NCBI GenBank assembly: GCA_013336525.1
Contig: JAAXTM010000008.1
Span: 37,459-101,458, forward strand
Origin: Geobacteraceae bacterium
Lineage (GTDB): Bacteria > Desulfobacterota > Desulfuromonadia > Geobacterales > Pseudopelobacteraceae
Direction of reading: 5' to 3'
DNA length: 64,000 bases
The translations under genes were made by a program, and so were the position numbers. The notes beneath the pieces were generated by a model that had not been told where the DNA came from, searched no databases, and saw only the letters and a list, made by a program, of their open reading frames with translations. Positions 41,766-62,363 of the stretch are shown here, piece by piece (the stretch's first letter is position 1; every line of letters starts with the position of its first letter).

Positions 41766-44294
41766 TTAGCTTGGAGAGCAGCGCTTTATAAACACGACAA
41801 TCACCGCCGGTATTGTCACCAGCGCAAACAGGGCGGTAAAGCCGATCCCGAAATTAGTGGCCCAGCCGATGGATGCGAGTGCCGGGTAATCAGCAAGCGC
41901 CAGGGAACCGAAACCGGCGATAGTGGTTAGTGCCGACAGCAGTACCGCCCGTCCGGCCTGGACAAAGCGATCCTCTCTCCCTTGCGGGTCATCGGCGATA
42001 ATGCGGTGCCTGATGTGCAGGCCATAGTCGCTCCCCATTCCTACTATCGTCACCAGCACCATGGCATTCATGAAATTAAGCCCCATACCGAACAGCGCCA
42101 TGATCCCCAGCATAGCCAGCGATCCGGCAACAACCGGGAACATTGCGAAGAATATTCCGCCCGGAGATTCAAAGTGGGATAATAACAGGAACAGCACCAG
42201 CAGGCCGCCAATCAGGAAACCATAAAGAAAGCTCTGCTTGACCGAAGCGGCTAACTGTTCGCTGACTAGGTCAACATTCGTTACACGTGCCGTGGGGTCT
42301 ATACTGGTCAGTACGTGCAGAAAGGCGTTCCGGTCGAAGCCGGCTTCCTTGTAGTACAGAAACAGCAGTGCGTGATATCCGTTCGCATCCTTGATCAGAT
42401 GGCGGTCTGCCACACCCCGCAGTGGCGAGGCCTTCAGCCGGGCGATTGCCTCTTCCTCCGGCACCGGTGCCAGTGCGCTACCGTCGGAGAGTGCAGCAAT
42501 GAATGGCTGAAACGGACCGGGCTCAAACCCCTGGCTGAGAAGTGCACTTTTCAGCTCCGCCACAGGCAAGCCGCTACCGGTCATGTTTGAGATGTCCCGG
42601 CTGATATCAATCTGCCGGTCTCTGTTATTGATTATTTGCCCCAGCGAGGACCAACTGCTGATGCTCCCTTTTTTCTGCCAACTTCCGGCCAATTCGTCCA
42701 CATGTGACGCACGCCGCAGGACCTCGGACAAATCTTTCCCCTCGACCGCAATCAACAGCTGTTTCGGTGCAAGATTCAGGTGCCGCTCGATCTTACCCTG
42801 GGCCAGAAATGCCTCGGAGTGGCGCGGCTGCAGATTTTTCAGCTCGCCGTCGAAAAACGTTCGAGTGGATGCGGCGGCCATGCAGAGGAACGCAACAAGT
42901 GAGACCGCCAGAACCGTTCTGGGGAAGCGTCCGGTCAGACGCCAGACGTGGTGGAGTCCAAGCCCAGGTATTGGCCGGTAGCTGGCGGAAAAGCGCCTCT
43001 CCATATAAACCAGTAGCGGCGGGAGGAAGAAAAATGTTGTATAGAGCGAAAACAGTACTCCCAGTCCGACGAGCAGACCCAGTTCGTACAGTGCGCGCAC
43101 ATCGGATACCATCAGGGCAAAAAACGGCACCGCCGTGGTGGCGGCAGCGGTAAAAAGACTGTGGCCAGTATCTACCACTGCCAGATACAGCGCATCATTG
43201 CCGGTTTTTCCTGCGGCCCGCTCTGTGTGGAAACGGTCGTAGAGATGGATCGAGTAGTCCGTTCCGAGGCCGATGATCAGTGCCATAAAGGCAAAGGATA
43301 TGATGTGGATTGAGGGGAGTATTGTTCCGGCGACACCCAATGCCAAAGCCACGCCGACCGCTATGATAAGTGGCAGAAGCAGTGTGGGGAGAATGCGGCG
43401 GTAGACTGCGTAGAATAAGGCAAGCACCACCGCCAGCGAGGAGAGGATACAGGCGATGATGTTGGACTTCATCGCCGCTTCATCCAGTACCGCACTGATA
43501 TGGGCACCGGCACAGGAGATGGAAGCTGACGACCCTAGTCGCGCCTGGTTTATGGTCGTCACCAGCGCGCGGGCAAAGGCCATATCCTGCACCGGGCGGG
43601 CCGGTACGGCAATCATGATCAGTACCTTGCCATCCCGTGACAGAAAGTAGGGGGAATCCGGGTCCAGGTCGAGCGCCTGACTGCCGGCTTTAAGTCGTGG
43701 CAGGATCAGGTCCCGCAGGTATAGAGGGTCGGCGCTGGATAGACCGGTCATGGCCCCGCCGAATTGCCCGGCAAGGTCGGTCTGGATACGGCGCAGGGAG
43801 TCGTTCACTGAAGCTGACGCAAAACGCTGCACCAGTCCGGGGACATCTTCCGGCCCGATAAACAGTTGCGGATGGGTCACTGCATAGGCGATAAAAGAGT
43901 TGAAAGAGGCGGCTTCGCTGCCGTCAAAAACCCTCCAGGTGATGCGGAGAAAGGCCGGCTTTCCGTCCACTTGTGCTGTGCGTAGCCGTTCGGCAAAGCG
44001 CTCTGCCTCGCGGGGAAGCGCATCCTTCTCCCCCTCCAGCAGAAAATAGGCTTCATTAGCGCTGCCGGTCCACTGCAGTGAATCGAGCAGGAGTTTAAGA
44101 GCCGGTTGGCGTGTCGGGAAGAGCTGGAAAATATCGGCGTCGAAACGGGTTGTTGAGATAACGGCTACAGAGAACAGTAGCGCGAAAAAAAAGGTACTCA
44201 ACACTGTGCGAGGTCTGGTTGTGGTGGTCAGAAAGATCCATTCCAGGTGCCGGCGGGTAAGCGAATTGAACTTGGAAGTCAGTTTGCTAAACAT
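41766..44294 (-). CDS. MMPL/RND-superfamily lipid exporter
   Basis: 842 aa with two 6-TM bundles, each preceded by a large loop. The repeated motifs GTDYSIHLYDRF and GSDYGLHIRHR are typical of MMPL/HpnN-type transporters. Confidence 0.85.
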   Translation of the reverse strand: MFSKLTSKFNSLTRRHLEWIFLTTTTRPRTVLSTFFFALLFSVAVISTTRFDADIFQLFPTRQPALKLLLDSLQWTGSANEAYFLLEGEKDALPREAERFAERLRTAQVDGKPAFLRITWRVFDGSEAASFNSFIAYAVTHPQLFIGPEDVPGLVQRFASASVNDSLRRIQTDLAGQFGGAMTGLSSADPLYLRDLILPRLKAGSQALDLDPDSPYFLSRDGKVLIMIAVPARPVQDMAFARALVTTINQARLGSSASISCAGAHISAVLDEAAMKSNIIACILSSLAVVLALFYAVYRRILPTLLLPLIIAVGVALALGVAGTILPSIHIISFAFMALIIGLGTDYSIHLYDRFHTERAAGKTGNDALYLAVVDTGHSLFTAAATTAVPFFALMVSDVRALYELGLLVGLGVLFSLYTTFFFLPPLLVYMERRFSASYRPIPGLGLHHVWRLTGRFPRTVLAVSLVAFLCMAAASTRTFFDGELKNLQPRHSEAFLAQGKIERHLNLAPKQLLIAVEGKDLSEVLRRASHVDELAGSWQKKGSISSWSSLGQIINNRDRQIDISRDISNMTGSGLPVAELKSALLSQGFEPGPFQPFIAALSDGSALAPVPEEEAIARLKASPLRGVADRHLIKDANGYHALLFLYYKEAGFDRNAFLHVLTSIDPTARVTNVDLVSEQLAASVKQSFLYGFLIGGLLVLFLLLSHFESPGGIFFAMFPVVAGSLAMLGIMALFGMGLNFMNAMVLVTIVGMGSDYGLHIRHRIIADDPQGREDRFVQAGRAVLLSALTTIAGFGSLALADYPALASIGWATNFGIGFTALFALVTIPAVIVVFIKRCSPS

Positions 44295-44299
44295 GTAAT

Positions 44300-45001
44300 C
44301 TACAGCCCCTTGATGGCGGATAGCGGAACGATCGTCAATCCGTCGAGACGCGGGACAAATACGGCATCATCAAGAGTTGTGTTGATTTCCGGTTCGTCAA
44401 GAGTGATGCGAATACGGTCGTCGCGAATATTGCGGAGATCGAGCTCCATTGCAACCGGGACTCCGTTGATGGCGGAATATCTGCTGTAATTTACATGGTC
44501 GCCGGTTGGAGACTCTTTGGAGGTGATCAGGCCATTTTCAAAGGTCACCTTTTCAGAAAAACCCAGCTTGCCGCTGCGTTCCACTGTCCCGCTCAACGGT
44601 TGCCCTTCAAGCGGGTCGGCATCCATCACCCAGCGCATCATGCGCCACCCCTGCAAGCCCCCTTTGTCTGGCAGTTCGTCGAAACCGCCCACATAGGCGG
44701 TTGACTTGGAAGGGTAAATCAGTGTGATGCGATCTCCCACGGCAAAGGCCTCCATCATGGTTGTACCGAAGGGTGACAACACTACCAGGTGGAGCTGATC
44801 GGGGCGACGGTAGACCAGATAGCCGCTGCCGCTCATGCCGCTGTCCGAGGTATGGATCGAGAGGGATACGGCAGTCGAAAGTGTATTGACAACGGCACCT
44901 GGACGGTAGTCGATCGGTTTAGTCGCAAGTGTGGCGCAGGCGCTGAGGAGCAGCATCGGGAGCAGATGTTTTAATAATCGATATATCGTCATGGTGTGCA
45001 C
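44300..45001 (-). CDS. lipoprotein of unknown function (occupies the position of the DUF3261-type lipoprotein in APE clusters)
   Basis: 233 aa with lipobox LLLSAC. It sits between the LolA-like and MMPL genes. The family assignment is inference only. Confidence 0.6.
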   Translation of the reverse strand: MHTMTIYRLLKHLLPMLLLSACATLATKPIDYRPGAVVNTLSTAVSLSIHTSDSGMSGSGYLVYRRPDQLHLVVLSPFGTTMMEAFAVGDRITLIYPSKSTAYVGGFDELPDKGGLQGWRMMRWVMDADPLEGQPLSGTVERSGKLGFSEKVTFENGLITSKESPTGDHVNYSRYSAINGVPVAMELDLRNIRDDRIRITLDEPEINTTLDDAVFVPRLDGLTIVPLSAIKGL

Positions 45002-45016: not shown

Positions 45017-45640
45017 CTATTCCAACCGGAAATCCTTTTCAGTCAGTCCGATGTTGCGCCGTAACTTTTTCAAAATCATGGTTGCCCGGTCGCCGTTCTG
45101 TTCGTTGATGACCAACCGCCTGACCGTACCGTCCGCCAGAAAAACAATGGAAATGTCCTTGACCTGTCCTTTACCCGGAGGGGTTATAGTGATTGTATAC
45201 ACTGAATTGGTCAGGTCGGCCTGTAGTGCTACTCCGTCAGGTAGTGACGTTACCGGTGTTGCCAGCTTTAAGAACCATTGTTTCAGCCCCTGTTCCGGCG
45301 GCAGCGCGATTCTTGAGGAAGGCTTGTCCCTGCCGGAAGCCTGTTCGATGATGTTGTCATGCAGCAGCATGCGACCGCTGAAGGGCGGGTTTATCTCCAT
45401 AAAAAACAGATCGGGTTTTTTAAAGCGAAGTGAGCCGTTCATCACCATCGTCCGTTTCATCAACGAGAGCCGTTTCTCCTGGGTGATTTCGGCGGTAAAG
45501 TCAGAAATACCTGCAAAACCCCGGCGCAAGGCCTCCAGTCCTTCAACAGGAGAGATTGCACGGGCCTGGCAGGGGGAGCTGCTCAGCAGGAGTGCCAACA
45601 GCAGCAGAAAGAATACATGAGCCTGTTTCATCACTTTCAA
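45017..45640 (-). CDS. LolA-like outer-membrane lipoprotein carrier family protein
   Basis: 207 aa with a signal peptide. ...ISDFTAEITQEKRLSLMKRTMVMNGSLRFKKPDLFFMEI... matches the LolA-fold N-terminal pattern. Confidence 0.75.
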   Translation of the reverse strand: MKVMKQAHVFFLLLLALLLSSSPCQARAISPVEGLEALRRGFAGISDFTAEITQEKRLSLMKRTMVMNGSLRFKKPDLFFMEINPPFSGRMLLHDNIIEQASGRDKPSSRIALPPEQGLKQWFLKLATPVTSLPDGVALQADLTNSVYTITITPPGKGQVKDISIVFLADGTVRRLVINEQNGDRATMILKKLRRNIGLTEKDFRLE

Positions 45641-46158
45641 AGTTTACCTACTCCCAAGGTCAGCTGCACGGAGAGTAGTTGGCCCGCGCCGCTGGTGACA
45701 TTTCCTTCAATTATGAACAGGCGCCCGAATGATTTTATCACCTTGGCTGAAATAGTCAGGATGTCTCCAGCAACTGCCGGAGCTGAAAATTCGGCGTGAT
45801 CGATGGCCGCAATAAAACCGCCTTCCACCTCCGCCTGAGCGACAACAATACCGGCTAACTGGGCAACGGATTCGATCATGAAAATCTGGGGAAAACCATG
45901 GTTGCCGGTCACACCGGTTACGGCAACCGCTTGTGCGCCCTGTACCAGTGTAGTAATCCGGTCAAGAAACAGAAAGGGGTAACGGTGGGGCAGATAGTGT
46001 GCCGGATCGGGATTAAACAGGGTCGCCTCCGTTGAACCGGATGGCGAAGTAGGGCCCCTCTGGTGAGGCGGCCAGATGCAGACCGGTCTGGCCAGGCTGA
46101 AGCAAGGCCAGCAATGCCGCCATGGAAGTGCCTCCCATGGCCAGCGAGCTGCCGGCAA
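45637..46158 (-). CDS. FabA/FabZ-like 3-hydroxyacyl-ACP dehydratase (hotdog fold)
   Basis: LPHRYPFLFLDRI...GNHGFPQIFMIESVAQLAG. The only in-frame ATG/GTG/TTG upstream of the conserved core is the TTG at 46158, which overlaps the upstream gene by 146 nt. The true start is uncertain. Confidence 0.75.
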   Translation of the reverse strand: MPAARWPWEALPWRHCWPCFSLARPVCIWPPHQRGPTSPSGSTEATLFNPDPAHYLPHRYPFLFLDRITTLVQGAQAVAVTGVTGNHGFPQIFMIESVAQLAGIVVAQAEVEGGFIAAIDHAEFSAPAVAGDILTISAKVIKSFGRLFIIEGNVTSGAGQLLSVQLTLGVGKL

Positions 46159-47056
46159 CGCGCCCCGTATCTATCGGAGGAATCCCGCTGACACGCTCCA
46201 TGAGCGCCGGAAGGGAGGTTGTCGTACCGGAAAGTGAAACCTGTGCAGGGGGAGCAAAGCCATTCATGAGCATGTCAACCCCTTCCCGTTCCTGGCCGGG
46301 GAGGAGCAGGCCGACCGTACGGATGGAACCAATCCGCCCCATGACCCTTGCACCACGGCCGGCGGCGTGTTCGGCACTCTCCAATACGAGTATGCCGCAC
46401 CCTTCACCAAATGTTTTCGCGTAACGCCGTAACTGACCGGTGGCAGCAAAACCGGAGATCATCAAAGGGAGCAGTTCATCGACTCCGCCTGTCAACATGA
46501 TGTCGGCCCGTCCCTCACTGATGAAGCGGCAGGCCATCATAAAGGCTGATTCCGCCGAGCAGAATCGCTGTACCTGGGTGACGTTCGGCCCTTTCAGGCC
46601 ATGTTCGATAGAGGCGTTGCTGGCTGGTGCATTGGATACTGTGTTGGGGAACAGCATCGGGGAAATCCCCTCCACTCCACCGGTAAAATAGCCGCTCAGA
46701 AAATCAGCGGAATTGGCAACGCCGCCAAAGCCGCAGCCAAGAGCAATGCCGATCCGTTCAGCTGGTAGGGTGTTCTTGTCAACGCCGGCGCTCTTGAGGG
46801 CCAGTCCTGCGGCAACTACGGCAAACTGGCTGCAGCGATCCAGTTTGCGTGCCTTCAGGGGGGGGATGAAGTCGGTCGCTTTGAACCCGAGCGCCTTGCC
46901 CCAACTCCCGCCACTTCCTCCGTTATATTCGGCCGGAATCGGTGTCAGGGCATCCCGTCCGGAACTGATCAACTCCAGAAGCGGTTCAATTCCGATACCG
47001 GCGGGAGTTACCGCTGAAAAGCCGGAAATAACGATATTGGTCAGGGGAACGTTCAT
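46013..47056 (-). CDS. beta-ketoacyl synthase-like partner subunit (chain-length-factor-like)
   Basis: 347 aa with a thiolase fold. A Cys is retained (QRFCSAES), but the two catalytic His positions read VSLSGTTTS and GRVAGSSLAMGG, i.e. no His. The gene overlaps its neighbours by 4 nt. Confidence 0.8.
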   Translation of the reverse strand: MNVPLTNIVISGFSAVTPAGIGIEPLLELISSGRDALTPIPAEYNGGSGGSWGKALGFKATDFIPPLKARKLDRCSQFAVVAAGLALKSAGVDKNTLPAERIGIALGCGFGGVANSADFLSGYFTGGVEGISPMLFPNTVSNAPASNASIEHGLKGPNVTQVQRFCSAESAFMMACRFISEGRADIMLTGGVDELLPLMISGFAATGQLRRYAKTFGEGCGILVLESAEHAAGRGARVMGRIGSIRTVGLLLPGQEREGVDMLMNGFAPPAQVSLSGTTTSLPALMERVSGIPPIDTGRVAGSSLAMGGTSMAALLALLQPGQTGLHLAASPEGPYFAIRFNGGDPV

Positions 47057-48258
47057 AGTGCCAGCACCAGTGAAGTGATATTACCGCCAAAGGCAAATGA
47101 GTTGGAGATCGCTATGCGGCAGTCGGTTGGACGTTGTCCCTCATGGCAATAATCCAGATCACATTCCGGATCGCTGCCGCGGAAGTTGAGGGTTTGAGGG
47201 ATGATCCGCTGGTTGAGGGCAATTACCGTTGCCAAAGCCTCAATGGCACCGGCCGCACCGAGGCAGTGGCCGGTCATGGCTTTGGTTGATACCAGCGGCA
47301 CATCGGCAGCATGATTGCCAAAGACGAGTTTCATTGCATTTGACTCCACTACGTCGTTAAGCGGAGTGCCGGTGCCGTGGGCATTAACCCAACCGACCTG
47401 TCCGGTTTCTAACCCGGCTGAAAGTAGCGCTTCCCGCATTACCCGTGCGGCGGTAACACCGGACGGTTCCGGTGCAGTCATATGCCAGGCCTCGCCGGCA
47501 ATGGCATATCCGAGTATCTCCCCATAGATTTTGGCTCCTCGCGCACGGGCCTCATCTTCATCTTCCAGCACCAGGCAGGCGGCACCTTCGCCGAGTGAAA
47601 TACCCTGGCGCCCGAGACTGAAAGGTGAGCAGGGTTCTGTATCGATCACCTTCAGGGAGTTGAACCCGGCGAAGGTGAGCAGGGAAAGGGTGTCGCTGCC
47701 ACCAACCAGTACGGCTTTCTGCTGACCGGTGGCAATCAGGTCCGCCCCCCAGCCGATGGCGGTAGCTGAAGACGAGCAGGCGGTTGTAACGCTTCCCTGA
47801 TAGCCGGCCAGGCCAAAAGTTTTGGCAAGCACTGTTGTGGTGGTGTCCGGCAGAATCCCCCGCAAAAGGTCGGGCGAGGCATTTTGACCGGCAAGTCGGG
47901 ATTTCAGCCACTGTTCGGCCTGGAACATGCCGGCGGCCCCGGCTCCCATGGAAACGCCCATCTCATACGCTGAATAACTGCCGCTGATTCCGCTGTCGGT
48001 GAGTGCTTCTCCGGCGGCGATCACGGCAAACTGGTCGGCCCGTGAAAGTTTTCGGGCCGTAGTTTTATCAAAATAGTTCCGTGGCTCATAATTTTTGACC
48101 TGGCAGCCGATCCTGGAGGGAAAGGGGGCTACGTCAAACAGGTCAAGTGGACCTATGCCGCTGACGCCGTTCAGCAGGGCATCGGTGAATGCCGGTACAT
48201 TTGTGCCGGAACCGCTGAAAACTCCCAGGCCGGTTATGACAACACGCCGCTTTTTCAT
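47053..48258 (-). CDS. beta-ketoacyl-ACP synthase (FabF/KAS II type)
   Basis: 401 aa; active-site TTACSSSATAIG, NAHGTGTPLND and TGHCLGAAGAIE give an intact Cys-His-His triad. Confidence 0.9.
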   Translation of the reverse strand: MKKRRVVITGLGVFSGSGTNVPAFTDALLNGVSGIGPLDLFDVAPFPSRIGCQVKNYEPRNYFDKTTARKLSRADQFAVIAAGEALTDSGISGSYSAYEMGVSMGAGAAGMFQAEQWLKSRLAGQNASPDLLRGILPDTTTTVLAKTFGLAGYQGSVTTACSSSATAIGWGADLIATGQQKAVLVGGSDTLSLLTFAGFNSLKVIDTEPCSPFSLGRQGISLGEGAACLVLEDEDEARARGAKIYGEILGYAIAGEAWHMTAPEPSGVTAARVMREALLSAGLETGQVGWVNAHGTGTPLNDVVESNAMKLVFGNHAADVPLVSTKAMTGHCLGAAGAIEALATVIALNQRIIPQTLNFRGSDPECDLDYCHEGQRPTDCRIAISNSFAFGGNITSLVLAL

Positions 48259-48998
48259 CAGACGATTCCGCCGTCAACTATCAGTGATTGGCCGGTGATA
48301 TAGGAAGCACGCTCAGAGCCCAGGAATAATGCCGCTTCGGCAACTTCTTCCGGGGTGCCGAGGCGACCCAGAGACGAACTCTTTACGATTCTTTCTACGA
48401 TGTCCTGCTTCAGACCCACCGTCATGTCGGTGCTGATAAGGCCGGCAACCAGGGCGTTAACCCTGATTCCCATCGGCCCCAACTCACGGGAAAGCGATTT
48501 GGTGAAGCTGATTGCAGCCCCTTTGGAGGCGGCGTAGTTGGTCTGGCCGGCAGTCCCGGTAAGGGCGGAAACGGAGGAAATATTGATAATGGAGCCGCTG
48601 CGGCGTGCCAGCATCTTGCGCACCCCCCACTTGCAGCAGTGAAAGAGAGGATTCAGGTTGGTACGGATCACACTGTCCCAGTCATCTTCGGCCATCATGG
48701 CCAGAAAACCGTCCTTCACGATCCCGGCGTTGTTGACAAGTACATCGATATGCCCGGCAGACAGCGAGGCGGAGTTGATGACGCTTTGTGCTCCATTTGA
48801 TGTGCTGACATCGCCCTTGATAACAACGATAGAACCTGGCAGGTCGGCAGAATCAGCAACAAGAGAGGAGGCTGTCTCATCATTGCTCAGGTAAGCGGCA
48901 AAAACCTGCGCGCCATGGCGGGCAAAAGCCAGGGATATGGCTCGTCCGATACCGCGGGTACCACCGGTGACAACTACAATTTTATCTCTGAATTCCAT
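48258..48998 (-). CDS. 3-oxoacyl-ACP reductase (SDR, FabG-like)
   Basis: 246 aa; TGGTRGIGRAI, NNAG, and the NYAASKGA YxxxK motif. Confidence 0.9.
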   Translation of the reverse strand: MEFRDKIVVVTGGTRGIGRAISLAFARHGAQVFAAYLSNDETASSLVADSADLPGSIVVIKGDVSTSNGAQSVINSASLSAGHIDVLVNNAGIVKDGFLAMMAEDDWDSVIRTNLNPLFHCCKWGVRKMLARRSGSIINISSVSALTGTAGQTNYAASKGAAISFTKSLSRELGPMGIRVNALVAGLISTDMTVGLKQDIVERIVKSSSLGRLGTPEEVAEAALFLGSERASYITGQSLIVDGGIV

Positions 48999-50460: not shown

Positions 50461-50879
50461 GGCAGCTCCAACGCAGCTAATAAACGGTTTACCCGCTCAG
50501 CGATCAGGGGGGGGAGTTGAAACTGAAGTACGCCATCCAGATCGGTCAATGCGTGGGTTGTCGAACCGGTGGCATACTTTTTACCGTCAGAGCCGACTAT
50601 GGTGGTGATAAATTCGAGAGTGGCTGTCTCGGTCCGGCGCAGGGTTGTCCGGATCGTCAGCTCTTCGTTAAAACGGGCCGGCCGCAGAAACTTCAGTTCA
50701 AGAGCTACCACCGGTCCCAGATATCCGACTGTCGCCAACTGGAAAGCATCCAGGTCGAACTCCCCGGCCAGGGCGTTGCGGCCGATCTCCATCCAGGCCA
50801 CGTAATGGCCGTGCCAGGCGACACGGTAGGCATCAATTTCGTTGAAGCGGACTGCTATTTTCGTTTCGTGGAATTTCAT
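50457..50879 (-). CDS. 4HBT/YbgC-type acyl thioesterase (hotdog)
   Basis: 140 aa; VRFNEIDAYRVAWHGHYVAWMEIGR carries the catalytic Asp context of 4HBT thioesterases. Confidence 0.8.
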   Translation of the reverse strand: MKFHETKIAVRFNEIDAYRVAWHGHYVAWMEIGRNALAGEFDLDAFQLATVGYLGPVVALELKFLRPARFNEELTIRTTLRRTETATLEFITTIVGSDGKKYATGSTTHALTDLDGVLQFQLPPLIAERVNRLLAALELP

Positions 50880-55551: not shown

Positions 55552-56928
55552 TTATTTGCTTCCGGTTTTCATGGTCTTTACCGGAGGCTCCTTGAACTCA
55601 TCTTCCCAGATCGGATCAGCGATCTCTGCATAGGAACGGGAGTAGTTATCCATCTGGTCCGCCAGGCCGGTGAAAATTTCATCTGCACCTTCATGGGTCG
55701 GATAGGCACCTTCAGAGGCGAAAAGTTCCCGACCGGCTGCCGGTTGATCAATCAGCATGCAGGGGCGCAACAGGTTGTCATGCTCACCCTGTTTCTGGCG
55801 GATTTTAGTGAAAAACGGAGATGAAAGCGCCTCGTGGATAGTTGAACGGCGGATATTATCAACGGCAAAATGACAGAAGACACACGGCTCGATGTCGCCG
55901 TTGGCATTGATATGGAAATATTTGCGCCCTCCGGCCAGGCAGCCGGAGATCATCGGCCCGTCATTCCAGAAGTCAATAAACAGCATCGGCTTTTCGGCGC
56001 GATAGTCGATAACGGTCCGACGCAGTTCATCTCGCTGTTCGGGGGTCGGCATCAGTTCAGGTTCAGGCTTGCGTCCAACCGGAACATAGGAAAATAGCCA
56101 CATGGCAAAGACGCCCTTCTTCAGCAGCATGTCGATGTAGTCGCCATTGGTGATGATGTCGGAATTTTTGCGGGAATGAGTGAATGAGCCGCAGAAGGAA
56201 AGTCCCCCCTCTTTCATCAGGTCCATGGCGTGCATAACCTTTTTAAAATGCCCGGCACCGCGGCGTTCGTCGGTTTCCTGCTCGTACCCCTCAAGCGAAA
56301 AGGAGGGCATGACATTGCCGACGTCAGTCAACTTTTCAACCATCTTTTCATCGATCAGACCACCATGGGTAAAGACCAGAAAAGCCATGTCGCTATGTTT
56401 TTTGAAGATTTCGAAAATGCCTTCCATATAAAACGGCTCACCGCCGGAGATAACTGCGAAATAAACACCCATCTCTTTCATCTGGGTCAGGATGGAATCG
56501 ACTTCATCCAGCGAAAGTTCCAGCGATTTGTCATAGTCGCCGGCATAGCAGCCGTAACAGCTGAGGTTGCAACGCATGGTAGGACTGATAACCACGGTTG
56601 AAGGTGGATAATAGCCGTACTTGTCACTCCACTCCTTGCGTTTGTTGGTACCGTTCAGCAGGTGATTGACGAGCAGATTGCTGATCCATTTGTCACGCTG
56701 ATTGGGGTGCAGATCGCGGAGAATCCTGCGGGGGAATTCAATGCTCGGATGTTTATCCCGCACCAGACCACGAATCCAGCGGATGCGATCCTTGTAATAG
56801 TCCTTCTTGGGAATCATCTCCATCAGATGGGTCATGCGGATCAGCGATTCATCTGATGAATTTGTCGCCAGCGACAGGAGATATGTAAGGATCTTTTCTT
56901 TTGTGTAATTTTTCAGAGTGTTGATCAT
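55552..56928 (-). CDS. radical SAM protein with C-terminal SPASM/twitch-like Cys region (no B12 domain)
   Basis: 458 aa with an ~110-aa N-terminal extension, cluster motif CNLSCYGC, and the later GCLAGGRKYFHINANGDIEPCVFCHF, typical of auxiliary-cluster domains. Confidence 0.8.
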   Translation of the reverse strand: MINTLKNYTKEKILTYLLSLATNSSDESLIRMTHLMEMIPKKDYYKDRIRWIRGLVRDKHPSIEFPRRILRDLHPNQRDKWISNLLVNHLLNGTNKRKEWSDKYGYYPPSTVVISPTMRCNLSCYGCYAGDYDKSLELSLDEVDSILTQMKEMGVYFAVISGGEPFYMEGIFEIFKKHSDMAFLVFTHGGLIDEKMVEKLTDVGNVMPSFSLEGYEQETDERRGAGHFKKVMHAMDLMKEGGLSFCGSFTHSRKNSDIITNGDYIDMLLKKGVFAMWLFSYVPVGRKPEPELMPTPEQRDELRRTVIDYRAEKPMLFIDFWNDGPMISGCLAGGRKYFHINANGDIEPCVFCHFAVDNIRRSTIHEALSSPFFTKIRQKQGEHDNLLRPCMLIDQPAAGRELFASEGAYPTHEGADEIFTGLADQMDNYSRSYAEIADPIWEDEFKEPPVKTMKTGSK

Positions 56929-56943: not shown

Positions 56944-57606
56944 TTACATGTAGCGTAAAAATGTCATGCTTATATTGACTGTATCTTTGACCGGGCGATA
57001 ATGGCTGGTTGCGCGGCCATCGGCAACCCGTGCTGCAATCGGAAGGGAGCCAACCGTGAAACCTCTCTTCCATGCCTTCAATAAAATTTCCATCTCCAGT
57101 GCGTATCCATTTGACTTCAATGACACATCCTTCAATACGTTACGAGAATAAAACCTGAAACCGGACTGACTGTCCGTAATCTCAAAACCTGTACGTTTCC
57201 AGATACACCAGACACCGATACGGTTCCATAATTTACGGAGACCGGACATCAGTTCGAACTGGGCGTGACGGGACGCTATCAGAATGCCCCAGCCGCCGTT
57301 CTGTGCAGAAGAGACCAGCTGCGGGATAGCTGAAACATCATGCTGGCCGTCGGCATCAATTGTTACTACCGCGTCGAAAGCGGATTCAATCGCCCAGGCA
57401 AAACCGGTTTTCAGCGCAGCTCCCTTGCCAAGATTTTGCCGGTGGCGGAGCAGTGTCACCGGTAATCCGGCTAATAAATCGGACAGGTCAGTTGCCGAGC
57501 CATCATCAACCACCACCACCGGCATGCCATGCTCCAGGCACTCTTGAACCACCGGCAGAATTGTGATGTCGGCGTTATATGCAGGAATCAGGATACAGGT
57601 TGCCAC
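56944..57606 (-). CDS. family 2 glycosyltransferase (short, polyprenyl-phosphate/lipid type)
   Basis: 220 aa; ILIPAYNA...VVVVDDGSATD...TIDADGQHD gives the GT-A DxD. Confidence 0.85.
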   Translation of the reverse strand: MATCILIPAYNADITILPVVQECLEHGMPVVVVDDGSATDLSDLLAGLPVTLLRHRQNLGKGAALKTGFAWAIESAFDAVVTIDADGQHDVSAIPQLVSSAQNGGWGILIASRHAQFELMSGLRKLWNRIGVWCIWKRTGFEITDSQSGFRFYSRNVLKDVSLKSNGYALEMEILLKAWKRGFTVGSLPIAARVADGRATSHYRPVKDTVNISMTFLRYM

Positions 57607-58427
57607 TCGTACACCAGCTCCTTTAGAGTTTTAAATCGATAACGCCGGCACAGTTCATTCAAACGGGGAGTCGCGTCCATTCTGGTTCCATAAGATACAA
57701 ACCGTTTCAAAAGCGGCAGGTCAAGCCTTGGTCCTTCAGGGTCCACCTCGCGCGGGTGAAGATACAGTACCGCCGGGTGATGTTTGCGGTTAAGCGATTC
57801 AATTGTCGCAAGTATGGTCCTGAAAGGGAAAAGCCTGAATCCCCATCCACCACCGGTTGGCAGGTTTCCTGTCAAAGACTTTGTCACCATCGGCGGGATT
57901 TCCCACAGCCCTGTTCCTTCGCCCTCAAGGCGGTATGGGACGCGGCTGCCGTTGGAATCACCTATAAAGGGGAGCGGATTTAGGCTCGAATCATATAGAT
58001 ACCCACGTTCTCGCAGGATAGCAAAGGGCCACCCGGTTTGCTCTGATAAAGACCATTGCGGAGCCCTGTAACCGACAGGGCGCTGTCCGGTCTGCTCCAT
58101 CAGTATCCGCTCGGTGAGTTGCAGCTCGTCACTAAACTGTTGCGGCGTCAGGTCCGGCACCAGACTGTGTGAATAACCGTGTGAGGCTATTTCATGCCCC
58201 GCTGAGCAGATCATGGTTGCTAAATCAGGATCATTTTCGGCCACGGAACCGAGTATGAAAAAAGTGCCTTTTTGACCATGTTCGTCAAGTAAAACAAGGA
58301 TCCTCTTCAGGTTGCTGCGAACCCGCCATGCCTCGCGTGGTGGAACAGGAATAACCCTCCCGGAGCCACAGACATGGTACCAATCCTCGACATCTATTGT
58401 TATAGCATTGTACGTCAGTAAAGGCAC
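57588..58427 (-). CDS. polysaccharide deacetylase family protein (NodB-like, DUF3473-type)
   Basis: 279 aa; ITIDVEDWYHV...GHEIASHGYSH are metal-binding motifs of CE4 deacetylases. It overlaps the GT2 gene by 19 nt. Confidence 0.8.
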   Translation of the reverse strand: MPLLTYNAITIDVEDWYHVCGSGRVIPVPPREAWRVRSNLKRILVLLDEHGQKGTFFILGSVAENDPDLATMICSAGHEIASHGYSHSLVPDLTPQQFSDELQLTERILMEQTGQRPVGYRAPQWSLSEQTGWPFAILRERGYLYDSSLNPLPFIGDSNGSRVPYRLEGEGTGLWEIPPMVTKSLTGNLPTGGGWGFRLFPFRTILATIESLNRKHHPAVLYLHPREVDPEGPRLDLPLLKRFVSYGTRMDATPRLNELCRRYRFKTLKELVYEWQPVS

Positions 58428-58497
58428 TCCGATACGCGTCGATAAAAGTTATAATAATTACATTACAAGTGATATCAAGTCAATATACCTGTCCCTG

Positions 58498-59457
58498 CTA
58501 AAGCATGCTCCTGATTTTTGTTCTTACGGCTTCTGCCACATCCCTGGTAACAAGTTTTCTGTCCGTTAGCGATTTAAGATAAAAGGGGACAACACAGCCG
58601 CAGCGGTGGCAATCGGCCTTGGGGCCAAGCATGCAGGGCTCTTTCATGACTCCGTCCGGTCCAAGAGCAAATGATTTTTCAGCAAAGGGGCATTTGTCAG
58701 TGACCGTTCGCGCTCTGTCGGATTTCATCAGTCTTAGCGTGCGTGTTGTGTTGACGATAAAATCTCCGTACAACGATTTCATTTCAATCAGAAATTCGAG
58801 AATTTGATCTTTTCCTTCCCATTCAAGCCACAGCGAATCGTCAACTCCCCTGACAGGGGTAAAAAAGCTGAACACAATGTTTCTGACTTTCGGGTTACTG
58901 CTCCACTCCTCCAGAGATGCGGAAATTTCAGTAACGTTCTCACTGGTAATGCAGTAGGCTATGGTGATTTTCAGTCCTTCGGTTGCGTCTATGTTCTGCC
59001 TGATCGTATCGAAAAGACCAGGCTTGTTGCGCATTTTGTCATGACTCTCCCTTCCCCCGTCAACCGAAATGTACCAGCTCACATCTTTCCAGTCGGGGAG
59101 CGGCAGGGAGCCGTTAGTCGTCACCGTATTGTATTTGAAATAGCGCCTACCCAATTCGATGAGCGGCAGACGCAGGAGAGGTTCTCCACCGACCCATGTA
59201 CACTGGAAGGAACGAAACCCCTCCGCCTTCATGTTCTCGAATTTTTCTCTCCACTGATCAAGCGACCACTCGGAAGAGTGTTCCTGTTCGAAAAAATAGC
59301 AATGATCGCAGCGCAGGTTACACCGATTGGTAACATCAACCGATCCGAAGCTGTTTTTAGGGATGCCGAAGAGGAAGAAACCGAGTTGAGCAAGATTGTA
59401 GGTGGAGAAGAGTGGTTTTGGATGTCTTGGTGCGGAAGTATGCTGCTGATTATTCAT
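58498..59457 (-). CDS. radical SAM protein, HpnH/DUF3463-like architecture
   Basis: 319 aa; cluster motif CNLRCDHC and a C-terminal Cys-rich tail CPFAEKS...CMLGPKADCHRCGCVVPFY. The resemblance to adenosylhopane-synthase-type rSAMs is from memory and needs an HMM check. Confidence 0.75.
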   Translation of the reverse strand: MNNQQHTSAPRHPKPLFSTYNLAQLGFFLFGIPKNSFGSVDVTNRCNLRCDHCYFFEQEHSSEWSLDQWREKFENMKAEGFRSFQCTWVGGEPLLRLPLIELGRRYFKYNTVTTNGSLPLPDWKDVSWYISVDGGRESHDKMRNKPGLFDTIRQNIDATEGLKITIAYCITSENVTEISASLEEWSSNPKVRNIVFSFFTPVRGVDDSLWLEWEGKDQILEFLIEMKSLYGDFIVNTTRTLRLMKSDRARTVTDKCPFAEKSFALGPDGVMKEPCMLGPKADCHRCGCVVPFYLKSLTDRKLVTRDVAEAVRTKIRSML

Positions 59458-59484
59458 GAAGCTTCACCCTATTATGAATTAAAC

Positions 59485-59525
59485 ACAGAAAGAACCCACG
59501 GCTCCAAGCCATGGGCTCTTTCTGT
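59485..59525 (-). terminator. 14-bp stem-loop between the lipoprotein gene and the first operon gene (terminator or attenuator)
   Basis: ACAGAAAGAACCCA / TGGGCTCTTTCTGT with one mismatch and a 13-nt loop. On the minus strand it is followed by GTGTTTAATTC and ends 28 nt before the rSAM start codon. Confidence 0.4.
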
Positions 59526-59591
59526 ATGACTTGCTGTTATAGTTCCGCTGCTCCGCTTCAAAGCATGCCAGTTCAGGTGCTGCTTTGCGTT

Positions 59592-60110
59592 TTAAGGGTG
59601 TTCTTTTTTATAATCAGTAACAATATTATTGAATTTATCTTCTTTAAGATCAGGTACATTCGCGGACGGATCCAGTTCGTAGTATTGACATTTGCCATCC
59701 ATTTCATCGTACATTTTTTTACTTTCATCGATATCATATTTTGTCCGGGCTGACAGCACACCCATTCTGATCTCCTGACGGAGATAATAAGTTTTGTCCG
59801 GTTCGAAGTTAAGTAATACTGCGTCAAAATTTTCTGCATCTGCGATGATAAAGTGCTGACCTGGATCTACAGTGCTTACAAAGAAACCCTTACCCCTAGT
59901 TGTACCAATAAACTTCCGGTCTACATAGTTATCGATATTGACGGCGCCACCAAAGAATGTGGTGCGCCCAATAACCAATGCAGACTTACCGGCAGGCGGC
60001 TTGATCTCGCGCAGGTCTGGACAGACATCTTTGGCGATCATCCGACTTGGACTGCATCCGCCTGACAAAAGCAGGGAACAAACACCAATCAGTAAAAAAA
60101 ATCTCTTCAT
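59592..60110 (-). CDS. lipoprotein of unknown function (DUF2846-like)
   Basis: 172 aa with lipobox LLLSGGC. The family guess is from memory only. Confidence 0.6.
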   Translation of the reverse strand: MKRFFLLIGVCSLLLSGGCSPSRMIAKDVCPDLREIKPPAGKSALVIGRTTFFGGAVNIDNYVDRKFIGTTRGKGFFVSTVDPGQHFIIADAENFDAVLLNFEPDKTYYLRQEIRMGVLSARTKYDIDESKKMYDEMDGKCQYYELDPSANVPDLKEDKFNNIVTDYKKEHP

Positions 60111-60332
60111 ACACCCTCCACTTAAATTTACCCAGAGCCTGTAGCACTGGAAGTGTTGAATAGCTACGGTATCAATTTTGAGTTTGACTTAACAAATTGG
60201 CCTTGTCAAACAATTTAGATCCAAATTCGACATACGCACCTGCTTTTCCGGCGACTCTGTGCTATAGATGAAAAAGAGCCCTCTGGAGGGCTAATATGAA
60301 ACCGGGATAACATTTCCAAGCGGAGTATAAGA

Positions 60333-61754
60333 GTGAAAATAGTCCTCCTGCACCCCTACGGCAGCAACTGGCTTAGTGGCATGAAAGATATCAGCACGGT
60401 ATTCAATCTGATGCCGCCGCTAGGTATTATGAGTATGGCAGCTGTTTTGGAGCGGGCGGGCATAGACGTCGAAATTATCGATTGCTACGCAACGCCTATG
60501 CCCCTTGCTGATCTGGTAGAAGAAATTATCCGCCGCGGCCCGGACTGTCTGGGCGTCTCTACCACGACATCTTCATTCAATGAAGGATATCGTGTCGCTG
60601 CAGCTGTAAAGGAAAAAGCGCCGCAGATATTCACCCTGTTCGGTGGAGCCCATGCCTGTACTATTGGCGCACAGCTACTTGATTCATTTCCCGCCATAGA
60701 TTATCTGGCTATCGGCGAAGGCGAAAACACAGTGCTGGAACTGGCCCAAGCAGGTTTCAAAGGGATTGAACAGCTTCCCGGCGTTGCATATAGGGATTCA
60801 AGCGGCGCGGGCGTCACTTCAGCGCCCCGTGAACTAATCAAGGATCTTGACGATCTCCCTTTTCCCGCATACCACAAACTGCCTCAATTTCCCAAACGCT
60901 ATAATCTACCACTCTTCAGTTATCCAACTGCTCCCAATACAAGCATCATCTCCAGTCGCGGCTGCCCTTATTCCTGCTCATACTGCGACCGCTCAGTGTT
61001 CAGCCGCGGCTTCAGATTTAACTCGCCTGAATATATCGTTGAGCATATGGCAATGCTTAACCGCGATTTCGGCATCCGCCATGTGTTCTTTTATGATGAT
61101 CTGTTTACCTTTGACCGCAAAAGGGTGGCAGAGTTCTGTGCCATAAAGGAACGTAAGGGATTGAAGGTTACCTATAATTGTATCGCCAGACTGGAACATG
61201 TGGATTCTGAATTGCTGGCGCTCCTTAAACGCTCCGGTTGCTGGCAGGTCAATTTCGGTATCGAGTCAGGAGATCCGGAAATATTAAAACAGCATCGCAA
61301 GTTCTTCGGGCTGGATGAGGTTGGACGTAAACTGCAAATGGTGAAGGATGCAGGCATGAGGGTTAAGGGGCTTTTTATGGTCGGCCTGCCGGGCGAGAAT
61401 GAGGCCGCTATTCGCCGCACCATCGATTATGCCCTATCACTGCCGCTGGACGAGATCAATGTTACCAAGTTCACCCCGTTTCCAGGGGCACCTGTCTACG
61501 GCACAATAAGAGAACAGGGTGAATTTAATGAGAGTTGGGATTTGATGAACTGCATGAATTTCGTCTTTGTGCCTCACGGTATGACCAAACAACAGCTGGA
61601 AGATCTCTATAACGAGTTCATTTACCGCTTCTACCACCGCCACCGCATCACCTGGGGGTACACTAAAATGCTCTGGAAATCGCCACACAGTATTTTGACG
61701 TTTATGCGGAACCTGCCGGAGATACTGGCTTTTGAGATGAAGCAGAAGTGGTAA
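60333..61754 (+). CDS. B12-binding-domain radical SAM protein (class B), copy 4
   Basis: 473 aa with a GTG start; MKIVLLHPYG... Rossmann-like domain and cluster motif CPYSCSYC. Confidence 0.85.
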   Translation: MKIVLLHPYGSNWLSGMKDISTVFNLMPPLGIMSMAAVLERAGIDVEIIDCYATPMPLADLVEEIIRRGPDCLGVSTTTSSFNEGYRVAAAVKEKAPQIFTLFGGAHACTIGAQLLDSFPAIDYLAIGEGENTVLELAQAGFKGIEQLPGVAYRDSSGAGVTSAPRELIKDLDDLPFPAYHKLPQFPKRYNLPLFSYPTAPNTSIISSRGCPYSCSYCDRSVFSRGFRFNSPEYIVEHMAMLNRDFGIRHVFFYDDLFTFDRKRVAEFCAIKERKGLKVTYNCIARLEHVDSELLALLKRSGCWQVNFGIESGDPEILKQHRKFFGLDEVGRKLQMVKDAGMRVKGLFMVGLPGENEAAIRRTIDYALSLPLDEINVTKFTPFPGAPVYGTIREQGEFNESWDLMNCMNFVFVPHGMTKQQLEDLYNEFIYRFYHRHRITWGYTKMLWKSPHSILTFMRNLPEILAFEMKQKW

Positions 61755-61772
61755 CATACAGGAAACGGTGAC

Positions 61773-62363
61773 ATGATACACTTCAAGGCATCCATAACTT
61801 TAGTACTGTTGTCCATACTTTCCCAGACAACGCCTGTTTCAGCTGGCAATCCGGTTTCTGGTATGAAGGGAGAATACGGAGGCCTCACCGGTTACGGCAT
61901 AACCCATAAATATTTTGGAGCAACCCGCACCCAGGTACAGACCTGGGATGCCATCCTCCGATTCGGCCGGTTTCTGTCTGACGATGTTGGCAAGGGGAGC
62001 TGGTATCAAGGAAGACATGAGTTGCTGATGGAGTTGCCGTATCATATGGCGGTGGATCATGGTGGCAGATCAATGGTGGGTGGGTATCTGTCCGGAAGCT
62101 GGAAGTTCACATCCCTGGAGAATGCAGCACCCTATGTTTTTGCTGGAGGTGGTCCCCTGTATGTGGATCTGGGACTCCCGACCATGGGAACTAAACTCTG
62201 CTACAGTTATCAGGCTGGAACCGGGCTGCAGTACTTTATTGACAGGAAGACCGCACTGAATGTGGAGTACCGATATCATCACATATCTAATGCAGGCACA
62301 GCTGAACCTAATGAACCGCTTAATTCCAGCAAAATCCTGTTTGGGATGTCATTTTTCTATTGA
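61773..62363 (+). CDS. acyloxyacyl hydrolase / PagL-like outer-membrane lipid deacylase
   Basis: 196 aa with a signal peptide and beta-barrel-like alternating pattern ending in F-Y. YRYHHISNAG matches the His-x-Ser-Asn catalytic motif of the PagL family. Confidence 0.75.
   Translation: MIHFKASITLVLLSILSQTTPVSAGNPVSGMKGEYGGLTGYGITHKYFGATRTQVQTWDAILRFGRFLSDDVGKGSWYQGRHELLMELPYHMAVDHGGRSMVGGYLSGSWKFTSLENAAPYVFAGGGPLYVDLGLPTMGTKLCYSYQAGTGLQYFIDRKTALNVEYRYHHISNAGTAEPNEPLNSSKILFGMSFFY

Follow-up and report, generated by a model that had tools for sequence, protein, structure and literature searches.

The window analysed here, a stretch of 64,000 nucleotides of contig JAAXTM010000008.1 from a Geobacteraceae bacterium, contains between positions 41766 and 62363 a block in which genes for lipid-chain building and envelope export are interleaved with genes for radical S-adenosylmethionine (SAM) enzymes, referred to here as rSAM enzymes. 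ORF listing and translation gave 18 co-directional minus-strand genes, running from 59457 down to 41766, and a divergent plus-strand pair at 60333-62363, upstream of this run. Functions were assigned to all ORFs of the block from Pfam and NCBIfam domain calls; the scans covered the 27 ORFs in 38.8-64 kb and ten large ORFs further upstream. An earlier note on this DNA had counted 17 co-directional genes, apparently missing the one for a LolB-like lipoprotein; its account of the gene content otherwise agreed with our scans, both in the location of the ORFs and in their functions.

The chain-building enzymes are all encoded on the minus strand. A dedicated acyl carrier protein (ACP; 52992-53249) has the motif GLDS and matches NF006617 with 72.7 bits (cut-off 70). 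The β-ketoacyl-ACP synthase (KS; 47053-48258) is FabF-like (TIGR03150, 389 bits) and has the Cys-His-His catalytic triad in the alignment. Against PDB sequences it scored 305 bits with B. subtilis FabF, 285 with 9s5h_B, 236 with Iga11 and 188 with 6smo_B, which we take to be ApeO; 9s5h_B is presumed to be the Brocadia amxFabF2 of a 2026 preprint (10.64898/2026.05.19.726425). The adjoining gene (46013-47056) encodes a 347-aa protein resembling a chain-length factor (CLF), with only an N-terminal KS domain recognisable by Pfam and with the same ranking of PDB matches, FabF being the highest. Aligned with the KS, this CLF-like protein has Phe/Ser/Ser at the Cys/His/His positions and is therefore regarded as an inactive KS partner. 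The 3-ketoacyl-ACP reductase (KR; 48258-48998) is of the FabG type (TIGR01830, 266 bits), has intact TGGxxGIG and YxxxK motifs and is the only short-chain dehydrogenase/reductase in the block. The 3-hydroxyacyl-ACP dehydratase (DH; 45637-46158) is a FabZ-like hotdog protein (NCBIfam FabZ, 60.4 bits; PDB FabZ entries, 35-39 bits) with the catalytic His (GNHGFP) and Glu (MIESVAQ); it fails the Pfam ApeP-like model PF22817 (11.5 bits, cut-off 27) and does not match PF22818. Its start codon is uncertain, as the longest ORF overlaps the CLF-like gene by 146 nt, and the FabZ-like region begins at ~46020, where the in-frame codon is CTG. A FabD/MdcH-like malonyl-CoA:ACP transacylase (AT; 50876-51712; MdcH 118.7 bits, FabD 107.4 bits) with the motif EHSMG and a 4HBT/YbgC-type thioesterase (TE; 50457-50879; Pfam 4HBT_2, 40.5 bits) in an ApeK-like position complete the set. 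No enoyl reductase of the FabI, FabK, FabV or FabL type was found among the 27 ORFs or the ten large upstream ORFs.

The genes for anchoring and export are likewise on the minus strand. The final gene of the operon (41766-44294) encodes an MMPL/RND-family inner-membrane lipid exporter of the ApeM/HpnN-like type (Pfam MMPL, 119.5 bits), whose scores with HpnN (178.6 bits) and BstA (136 bits) are both far below the cut-offs; it follows the LolB-like gene in 30 Geobacterales loci. That gene (44300-45001; Pfam LolB, 30.6 bits, cut-off 23.7), also syntenic in other loci, encodes an outer-membrane lipoprotein with the lipobox LLLSAC. It is preceded by a gene for a LolA-like periplasmic lipid carrier (45017-45640; Pfam LolA, 38.1 bits), again syntenic in relatives. 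The scores of this carrier with the flexirubin LolA2 model (42.3 bits, cut-off 125) and of the KR with FlxB (220.7 bits, cut-off 340) led us to reject a flexirubin assignment. The LpxL/PatA-family acyl-ACP-dependent acyltransferase (LPLAT; 53294-54214), which is ApeD-like and has the HX4E motif, matches Pfam Lip_A_acyltrans with 103.6 bits; its best NCBIfam match is the phosphatidylinositol mannoside (PIM) acyltransferase and not LpxL/LpxM. A short GT2 glycosyltransferase (56944-57606; Pfam GT2, 64.9 bits) is closest to polyprenyl- and lipid-phosphate sugar transferases (PpgS 88.6 bits, AglJ 83.1 bits, both below cut-off; also ArnC). The CE4 polysaccharide-deacetylase-family protein (57588-58427; Polysacc_deac_1 72.3 bits, DUF3473 110.6 bits; TIGR03006 222.6 bits, below the cut-off of 276) is encoded by the first gene of the conserved core, which was found in 58 of the related loci described below.

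Radical SAM enzymes of the block

The presence of six interleaved rSAM proteins, as first described, was confirmed by Pfam and by the CxxxCxxC motif, which all six contain. Three of them (SPASM, B12b and B12a) belong to a conserved core, and three (B12c, rSAM6 and B12d) are accessory and occupy variable slots. The core SPASM/twitch rSAM (55552-56928, minus strand; Pfam Radical_SAM and SPASM) carries a helical N-terminal extension of ~100 aa. It is 75-91% identical across Geobacterales, G. sulfurreducens included, and has only eight Cys, all invariant, which is enough for one auxiliary cluster. The cobalamin-dependent core enzyme B12b (51709-52995, minus strand) contains Pfam B12-binding, Radical_SAM and DUF4070 domains, with HpnJ as its best named NCBIfam match (92 bits). 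Its orthologues, with 69-95% identity, were present in 67 loci, always between the genes for ACP and AT.

Among the accessory enzymes, the cobalamin-dependent B12c (54196-55551, minus strand) is BchE/HpnR-like (BchE 193.6 bits, HpnR 146.9 bits, both below cut-off), and rSAM6 (58498-59457, minus strand; Pfam Radical_SAM, 54.2 bits) has a Cys-rich C-terminus. The cobalamin-dependent B12d (60333-61754, plus strand) is HpnJ/BchE-like (HpnJ 195.4 bits, cut-off 577.6) and is paired with a gene for an outer-membrane barrel (61773-62363, plus strand), a homologue of the PagL-family lipid A 3-O-deacylases (PF09411 (PagL), 74.9 bits, cut-off 23).

The third core enzyme, B12a (49081-50460, minus strand), has Pfam B12-binding and Radical_SAM domains and the motif CPFGCIYC. 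It matched the NCBIfam model TIGR04072 'rSAM_ladder_B12' (lipid biosynthesis B12-binding/radical SAM protein) over model positions 1-440 of 443 with 376 bits, a small margin above the curated cut-off of 360, and the second NCBIfam match was BzaD (205 bits). With the AlphaFold2 model of the protein (pLDDT 90), the top Foldseek match by a wide margin was the Trp C2-methyltransferase TsrM (TMq 0.86, E 1e-35), followed by AprD4 (TMq 0.71) and then MgmA, OxsB, CysS and TokK. In sequence, B12a is 24% identical to TsrM, and AprD4 was the second PDB match (104 bits). B12a shares the B12-binding Rossmann domain and the rSAM barrel with the class B cobalamin rSAM enzymes (TsrM, BzaD, AprD4, MgmA, CysS, TokK); whereas those act on an amino acid, a corrinoid base or an aminoglycoside, the substrate of B12a is presumably an acyl-ACP or a lipid.

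Two residues of the TsrM active site bear on the mechanism. Arg69, located beneath the cobalt, corresponds to R68 of B12a and is invariant in an alignment of 38 sequences. Glu273 (of KsTsrM), which caps the unique iron and enforces a non-radical mechanism, corresponds to Ile241 in the motif DDIFN, and an assignment of B12a as a TsrM-type non-radical methylase was rejected on this basis. Since the iron-capping Glu is missing, canonical radical SAM cleavage is expected; B12a should thus be a conventional radical cobalamin enzyme and not use the polar mechanism of TsrM. Judging from the TsrM-like fold and its relatives, it is most probably a C-methyltransferase.

Conservation in Geobacterales and related clusters in other phyla

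A Geobacteraceae metagenome-assembled genome holds an annotated protein identical to B12a. A scan for the B12a protein in one genome per GTDB species found 290 relatives, of which the best 80 loci were compared by tblastn of all 21 window proteins. Nearly all of these 80 are labelled Geobacter, Geobacteraceae or Desulfuromonadales. The order of the genes is fixed, CE4-GT2-SPASM-(B12c)-LPLAT-ACP-B12b-AT-TE-B12a-KR-KS-CLF-DH-LolA-LolB-MMPL: the complete set GT2-SPASM-LPLAT-ACP-B12b-AT-TE-B12a is present in this order in 55 of the 58 loci that reach CE4, and KR-KS-CLF-DH-LolA-LolB-MMPL follows directly downstream in 40 of the 53 loci with enough downstream sequence. B12a is in 80/80 loci, and the most conserved proteins of the cluster are the SPASM rSAM, ACP and B12b. 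The genes are also closely spaced, with 11 of the 17 junctions between minus-strand neighbours overlapping (in seven cases the overlap is exactly 4 nt or 1 nt) and the remaining six being gaps of 0-82 nt; overlaps of 4 nt join B12a/TE, TE/AT, AT/B12b, B12b/ACP and the KS/CLF-like genes. Because the gene order is kept in dozens of genomes, chance adjacency does not account for the cluster, and its best explanation is a chromosomal cluster inherited vertically in Geobacterales. The earlier note had considered that the rSAM ORFs might be housekeeping genes merely adjacent to the lipid genes, but the three core rSAM genes stand in fixed order within the cluster.

Of the rSAM set, initially treated as a whole, these three form the conserved core and the other three are accessory. 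A B12c orthologue is present in 12 of the 58 loci that cover its position, and an rSAM6 orthologue lies upstream of CE4 in 4 loci. The slot upstream of CE4 (58430-59530 in the window; L001 236-1423; also L006, L008, L012, L035 and L041) holds rSAM genes that differ from genome to genome: the small Cys-rich rSAM here and in the 4 loci, and a B12b paralogue with 40-42% identity in L001 and others. From this pattern, the slot looks like a hot spot for the swapping of tailoring enzymes.

The DUF2846 lipoprotein gene (59592-60110, minus strand; Pfam DUF2846, 33.2 bits, below the cut-off of 34.3) and the divergent B12d/PagL-like pair had been thought to complete the block. The pair is indeed linked to the cluster in about 5-6 of the 80 loci. 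It follows MMPL in L036, L057, L063 and L072 and also occurs in L027, L043 and L006; its linkage is thus recurrent and its position mobile, upstream of the cluster here and at the opposite end elsewhere. This linkage hints at a lipid A or outer-membrane ester-processing step. The DUF2846 gene, by contrast, has no homologue in any of the 80 loci, and it is split from the operon by the strongest terminator-like structure of the region, a 20-bp hairpin with a T-rich tail (59526-59484, minus strand) predicted to be its own terminator. We rejected it as a component and consider that it probably lies outside the system.

For the wider family, an exhaustive HMMER search of 1.84 billion cluster representatives returned 1,342 proteins at E<=1e-30. 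Ten diverse relatives scored 322-416 bits on TIGR04072, and five of the ten passed its cut-off; named family members come from Planctomycetota, Elusimicrobia, Bacteroidota (Flammeovirga), Opitutales, Lentisphaerota, Syntrophales and Schekmanbacteria. No anammox-named protein surfaced in the homology searches with B12a and the distant representative P0218 or in the family cluster look-ups. Four distant contexts (L081, L083, L085 and L087, from Planctomycetota, Elusimicrobia and one unlabelled metagenome contig) proved to be aryl polyene (APE)-type clusters. Between them they encode an MMPL-acyltransferase-methyltransferase fusion, a GT2 with DUF2062, an AMP-ligase, KR, several KS, CLF, two ACPs, dehydratases matching the Pfam ApeP-like and ApeI-like models, 4HBT, CE4 and LolA; an amino-oxidase (phytoene-desaturase-like) gene is present in L083 and L087. 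Compared with these clusters, the identity of the window proteins is 54-56% for ACP, 39% for KR, 37% for KS and TE, 34% for GT2, 34-35% for B12a and 31-33% for CLF, the ACP matches being those encoded beside KS/CLF in L081 and L083, and the TE and GT2 matches being the 4HBT and GT2+DUF2062 genes of L081.

In all four distant clusters, the TIGR04072-type gene comes directly after Lip_A_acyltrans and before the ApeP-like dehydratase gene; in L081, a SPASM rSAM gene is placed between the acyltransferase and the TIGR04072-type gene. Moreover, Elusimicrobia have Lip_A_acyltrans and the TIGR04072-type B12-rSAM joined in a single protein (P0294, 756 aa; P0294/P0220, L083 10001-12271), and another lineage has a fusion of SPASM rSAM with B12-rSAM (P0252, 807 aa; L085 7207-9630). 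As judged from these gene fusions, the acyltransferase, SPASM rSAM and B12-rSAM activities are functionally tied to each other. Two TIGR04072-like genes of Opitutales-type genomes (L082 and L084) stand beside genes for TonB-dependent-receptor Plug domains, in L084 also beside a methyltransferase gene; a TIGR04072 similarity of ~330 bits does not always mean a lipid cluster.

A proposed outer-membrane lipid pathway

The APE cluster family was reportedly described by Cimermancic in 2014 and by Grammbitter in 2019. With this family, its xanthomonadin and flexirubin types included, the block shares a KS and an inactive CLF-like partner side by side, KR, a hotdog DH, a dedicated ACP (the window ACP passes NF006617), a 4HBT thioesterase, the lack of an enoyl reductase in the cluster, an LpxL-family acyltransferase, GT2, and MMPL with a LolA-like protein and a lipoprotein partner. 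It differs in that APE clusters have two ACPs and two to three KS (apeE/F, apeO/R/C), whereas the block has one ACP, one KS, one CLF and one DH; in that its KS scores higher with FabF (305 bits) than with 6smo_B (188 bits) and its DH is not of the ApeI/ApeP type; in that its lipoprotein is of the LolB family and not DUF3261, and its GT2 lacks DUF2062; and in the addition of a FabD-like AT, a CE4 deacetylase and the six rSAM enzymes, three of them core and three accessory. The aryl-starter genes (AMP-ligase, ammonia-lyase, methyltransferase) are missing as well, and no aryl-starter domains were found by Pfam or NCBIfam in the block ORFs or in the neighbouring or scanned upstream ORFs. The earlier description of an almost complete APE scaffold thus stands for the KS/CLF pair, the missing enoyl reductase, the export set, the acyltransferase and GT2, but not for KS, DH and lipoprotein, which are FabF-, FabZ- and LolB-like. 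Similarly, the absence of aryl-starter genes was borne out, but the idea that the rSAM enzymes had taken their place was not, because in Planctomycetota the same rSAM pair is found together with an AMP-ligase and with methyltransferases. On the evidence of gene linkage, the rSAM enzymes belong to the pathway as add-ons to an APE-like scaffold.

We consider it probable, with due caution, that the block is a Geobacterales pathway that builds and exports a specialised outer-membrane lipid tailored by cobalamin rSAM enzymes. What is observed is the gene complement and its conserved order, the catalytic motifs, the translational coupling, the linkage across phyla and the gene fusions. For the anchoring and export roles there is a precedent in the APE-lipid proteins ApeD, ApeJ, ApeM, ApeL and ApeN, and the APE lipids themselves have a glycerol-phosphate-GalNAc (N-acetylgalactosamine) backbone and a conjugated C26:5-3-OH fatty acyl chain (bioRxiv 10.1101/2020.12.19.423268).

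We infer each chemical step, the polyenic nature of the chain, its acceptor and its localisation as follows. The FabD-like AT would load malonate onto the dedicated ACP, and the KS/CLF-like heterodimer would elongate the chain together with the FabG-type KR and the FabZ-like DH. Because the cluster is devoid of an enoyl reductase, and by analogy to APE and other highly reducing type II polyketide synthases, the elongation product would be a (3-hydroxy-)polyenoyl-ACP. B12a, B12b and the SPASM/twitch enzyme could then modify the chain on the ACP or at transfer, the likeliest reaction being C-methylation or another C-H functionalisation. The LpxL/ApeD-type acyltransferase would put the chain on a lipid acceptor. 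The short GT2 may add an N-acetylhexosamine to a lipid phosphate and CE4 deacetylate it, yielding a phospholipid anchor with an amino sugar, comparable to the GalNAc-phosphate-glycerol backbone found in APE lipids. The thioesterase would edit or release chains, and MMPL, the LolA-like and the LolB-like proteins would carry the product to the outer membrane. B12c, rSAM6 and B12d with the PagL-like esterase may vary the product between species.

In the hopanoid system, HpnI, HpnK, HpnJ and HpnN bring together a GT2, a deacetylase, a B12-rSAM and an RND exporter on a membrane lipid. The window shares this logic, but its cluster is based on fatty acid synthase-like genes and not on squalene, and an assignment to the Hpn system was rejected (HpnJ 195 vs 578, HpnN 179 vs 752 and HpnH 39 vs 225 bits). 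The parallel nevertheless speaks for a different role of the rSAM enzymes, in which they tailor the amino-sugar head group made by GT2 and CE4, for instance by ring contraction (HpnJ), deoxygenation (AprD4), C-methylation (GenK) or oxidation (BtrN), while the acyl chain is ordinary or polyunsaturated. HpnJ is the best named NCBIfam match of the products of 60333-61754 (195 bits) and 51709-52995 (92 bits), AprD4 is second for B12a both in fold (TMq 0.71) and in PDB sequence (104 bits), and the SPASM protein, like twitch-type sugar dehydrogenases, has Cys for one auxiliary cluster only. However, the Hpn and AprD4 scores are far below the family cut-offs, and the gene positions point to the acyl chain: across phyla, B12a is fused or adjacent to the acyltransferase and has ACP and dehydratase genes close by; the B12b gene shows translational coupling to those for ACP and AT; and GT2 and CE4 are at the end of the operon away from B12a. 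We therefore regard tailoring of the head group as unlikely and retain a tailored acyl chain.

The acyltransferase and the PagL-like barrel could also be read in terms of lipid A or lipopolysaccharide remodelling. The LpxL-type enzyme would add a special secondary acyl chain, GT2 and CE4 would make an undecaprenyl-phosphate amino sugar (ArnC/ArnD- or LgmA/LgmC-like), and the PagL-like protein would remove a primary chain. This would be in line with the Lip_A_acyltrans match (103.6 bits), the PagL match above cut-off (74.9 bits) with its recurrent linkage to the cluster, and the best named matches of GT2, which are the polyprenyl-phosphate sugar synthases PpgS, AglJ and ArnC; in the Arn and Lgm pathways, enzymes of this kind work together with CE4 deacetylases. 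Still, the block contains no ArnT/GT-C transferase or flippase, the acyltransferase has the PIM acyltransferase as its best NCBIfam match and not LpxL/LpxM, and the PagL-like gene occurs in only ~6 of the 80 loci. Furthermore, lipid A uses MsbA/Lpt, which makes an MMPL, LolA-like and LolB-like set needless, and the homologous clusters are of the APE type. We regard lipid A remodelling as quite unlikely, and a separate, specialised outer-membrane lipid as the better reading of this export set.

The NCBIfam name of B12a refers to ladderanes, and candidate loci for their biosynthesis in anammox bacteria have been proposed (Rattray 2009; Javidpour 2016; Dietl 2023; Granatino 2026 preprint). The Kuenenia locus kuste3335-3352 contains a glycosyltransferase, a phytoene desaturase, methylases, FabZ, ACP, FabG, two adjacent rSAM genes, three FabF (one non-canonical), a second ACP and a deacetylase-like protein (PMC4790861; PMC2649909). 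Another locus, anammox Cluster I (kuste3603-3608), has a KS/CLF pair (bioRxiv 10.64898/2026.05.19.726425); it is described as exclusive to ladderane producers, and no experiment is reported to link these genes to ladderanes (PMC10139942; 10.64898/2026.05.19.726425). Clusters similar to that of Kuenenia are carried by Geobacter, Pelobacter and Desulfotalea, and an inactive FabF paralogue of G. sulfurreducens has a Phe at the position of the active-site Cys (Rattray 2009, PMC2649909), as has the CLF-like protein of the window. The earlier statement on look-alikes of the anammox candidates in deltaproteobacteria was thus accurate, as Rattray 2009 names Geobacter and B12a passes TIGR04072. Fatty acid synthase-like genes with rSAM enzymes, KS with a dead KS partner, a dedicated ACP, a FabZ-like DH, a glycosyltransferase, a polysaccharide-deacetylase-like gene and a cobalamin rSAM family named rSAM_ladder_B12 by NCBI are common to the block and the anammox loci. 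The rSAM link between the window and anammox bacteria has only two sources, Rattray 2009 and the NCBIfam name. The composition of the four distant APE-type clusters also mirrors that of kuste3335-3352 and, taken together with the conserved linkage and the fusions, indicates that the rSAM enzymes are an integral part of a widespread cluster family.

Membership of B12a in TIGR04072, a KS/CLF pair as in Cluster I (bioRxiv 10.64898/2026.05.19.726425) and the similarity to kuste3335-3352 (PMC4790861; PMC2649909) might suggest that the product itself is a ladderane or another carbocycle, with the rSAM enzymes cyclising the polyene into fused small rings. Against this, no ladderanes were found in Desulfotalea, despite its syntenic cluster (Rattray 2009, PMC2649909). 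The block lacks two features of the anammox loci, SAM methyltransferases and a phytoene-desaturase-like gene, and its KS, DH and ACP are not specifically nearer to the presumed anammox structures (9s5h for amxFabF, 8ay* for amxFabZ) than to ordinary FabF/FabZ. In addition, the TIGR04072 family occurs in many non-anammox phyla, and the closest characterised relatives of B12a are methyltransferases. A ladderane-type product is thus very improbable. The broader proposal that the three core rSAM enzymes form C-C bonds, for example by cyclising or cross-linking a polyene bound to ACP or lipid, instead of simply methylating it, also appears improbable to us; if it were true, the product would be a new carbocyclic class of outer-membrane lipids mechanistically related to ladderanes, and the genetically tractable Geobacter would be the first system in which to dissect the 'ladderane-candidate' rSAM chemistry. 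Because it is embedded in APE-type clusters across several phyla, the TIGR04072 enzyme is likely a general envelope-lipid tailoring enzyme of anaerobes and not specific to ladderanes.

Several observations weigh against our proposal of a dedicated pathway for an rSAM-tailored outer-membrane lipid. KS and DH resemble the housekeeping enzymes FabF and FabZ more closely than those of the Ape or Iga systems, and a housekeeping FabI may act in trans, which would give a saturated rather than a polyenic chain. The named-family matches of GT2, CE4, MMPL, LolA and the acyltransferase are all below curated cut-offs, and GT2 is devoid of the DUF2062 of ApeJ-type enzymes. The AlphaFold2 model of the SPASM rSAM is poor (pLDDT 54), with generic Foldseek matches (SkfB, SuiB, anSME and viperin, TM ~0.4), and the rSAM enzymes may act on either the chain or the sugar. 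TIGR04072-like genes also occur solitarily, outside lipid clusters (L082 10001-11389, L084 10001-11494). The cluster is divided into two separate halves in 13 of the 53 loci. G. sulfurreducens CP010430 is of this split type, with CE4-GT2-SPASM-LPLAT-ACP-B12b-AT-TE-B12a at 8474-17536 of its locus (L086); two divergent B12-rSAM genes lie upstream, MaoC-dehydratase and DCC1-like genes follow the B12a half, and the KR-to-MMPL half must lie elsewhere in the genome. Finally, no lipid, pigment or phenotype tied to the cluster was found in the literature.

The statement of the earlier note that no product had been assigned was upheld by full-text literature searches (TIGR04072, GSU0458-0463, Geobacter lipidomics, and APE with rSAM), which revealed no published product for the Geobacter cluster. 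The cluster type itself is already known and not a new category: it was noted by Rattray 2009, it has a curated NCBIfam model, and look-alikes of it are called 'ladderane' by antiSMASH. In Desulfobacterota and other phyla outside the anammox bacteria, such calls are reported to lack a functional explanation (bioRxiv 10.1101/2022.12.20.521206), and ladderane biosynthesis has been unsolved for more than 20 years, anammox bacteria being genetically intractable and the candidate rSAM enzymes not having been expressed (PMC10139942, PMC4790861). The window places a member of the 'ladderane'-named cobalamin rSAM family within a compact, highly conserved lipid operon, and the tractable model organism G. 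sulfurreducens holds the cluster half with the three core rSAM genes. The main value of the cluster is therefore practical, with Geobacter as a host in which the function of a 'ladderane-family' cobalamin rSAM and its partners can be learned. An identified product would extend the rSAM-modified fatty-acyl lipids, which a 2026 review limits to ladderanes and jawsamycin, would account for the antiSMASH 'ladderane' calls that are frequent outside anammox genomes, and would possibly bear on the outer-membrane properties of Geobacter.

Borders of the block and neighbouring genes

A sigma-70-like promoter candidate precedes CE4 at 58451-58483 on the minus strand (TTGATA-16-TATTAT, 10/12 matches, a consensus match only). 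At the right-hand border, a 13-bp bidirectional hairpin terminator (62390-62419) is common to the convergent PagL-like gene and tRNA gene. No terminator-like hairpin was seen between the MMPL stop and the left tRNA gene; the hairpins on this side (~41533-41498 and 41262-41234) lie beyond the tRNA. Of the terminators proposed for both ends of the block, the right one was therefore found and the left one was not; like the tRNA bracketing, the terminators are without biological weight.

The two tRNA-Met(CAT) genes, at 41539-41615 and 62429-62505, both on the minus strand, flank the block and are outside the system. The block does lie exactly between them, as had been pointed out, but this position has no biological weight. 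The left tRNA is of the elongator type, and the right one is initiator tRNA-fMet-like, beginning with CGCGGGG and having three G-C pairs in the anticodon stem. They are distinct genes, with ~50% identity across the aligned tRNA genes and a mean column identity of 75% over 121 aligned columns. No att-like direct repeats were detected at the borders. Housekeeping genes make up the flanks (hisG, a SPOR protein and the 3' end of argS; further out mutS, rnr, hom/thrC and pta), and among the 21 related loci checked a tRNA gene adjoins MMPL only in L001, a 93%-identical relative. Since the tRNAs differ, flanking repeats are missing, the flanks are housekeeping genes and a tRNA is rare in relatives, we conclude from the sequence comparison that the bracketing is a local coincidence.

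The tRNA genes at both ends could otherwise be taken as the mark of a genomic island that was gained by horizontal transfer and entered at a tRNA gene, to which the base composition might be added: GC is 0.55-0.59 at 42-52 kb (0.52-0.59 in the core overall) and 0.47-0.49, below the core, in the accessory region at 58-62 kb, compared with ~0.50-0.53 in the flanks. With two different tRNA genes, no direct repeats, no integrase among the ORFs scanned with Pfam and NCBIfam, housekeeping flanks, and a cluster that is not patchy across the order but keeps its gene order throughout Geobacterales, without tRNAs in 19 of the 21 loci checked, such an island is extremely improbable and was rejected.

The remainder of the window (1-41000) holds unremarkable housekeeping and signalling genes, which encode a methyl-accepting chemotaxis protein, RNase R, homoserine dehydrogenase, two pyridoxal phosphate enzymes, phosphotransacetylase, a DUF2201 metallopeptidase-like protein, a PAS-GGDEF-EAL protein, an SLT transglycosylase, MutS and HisG.

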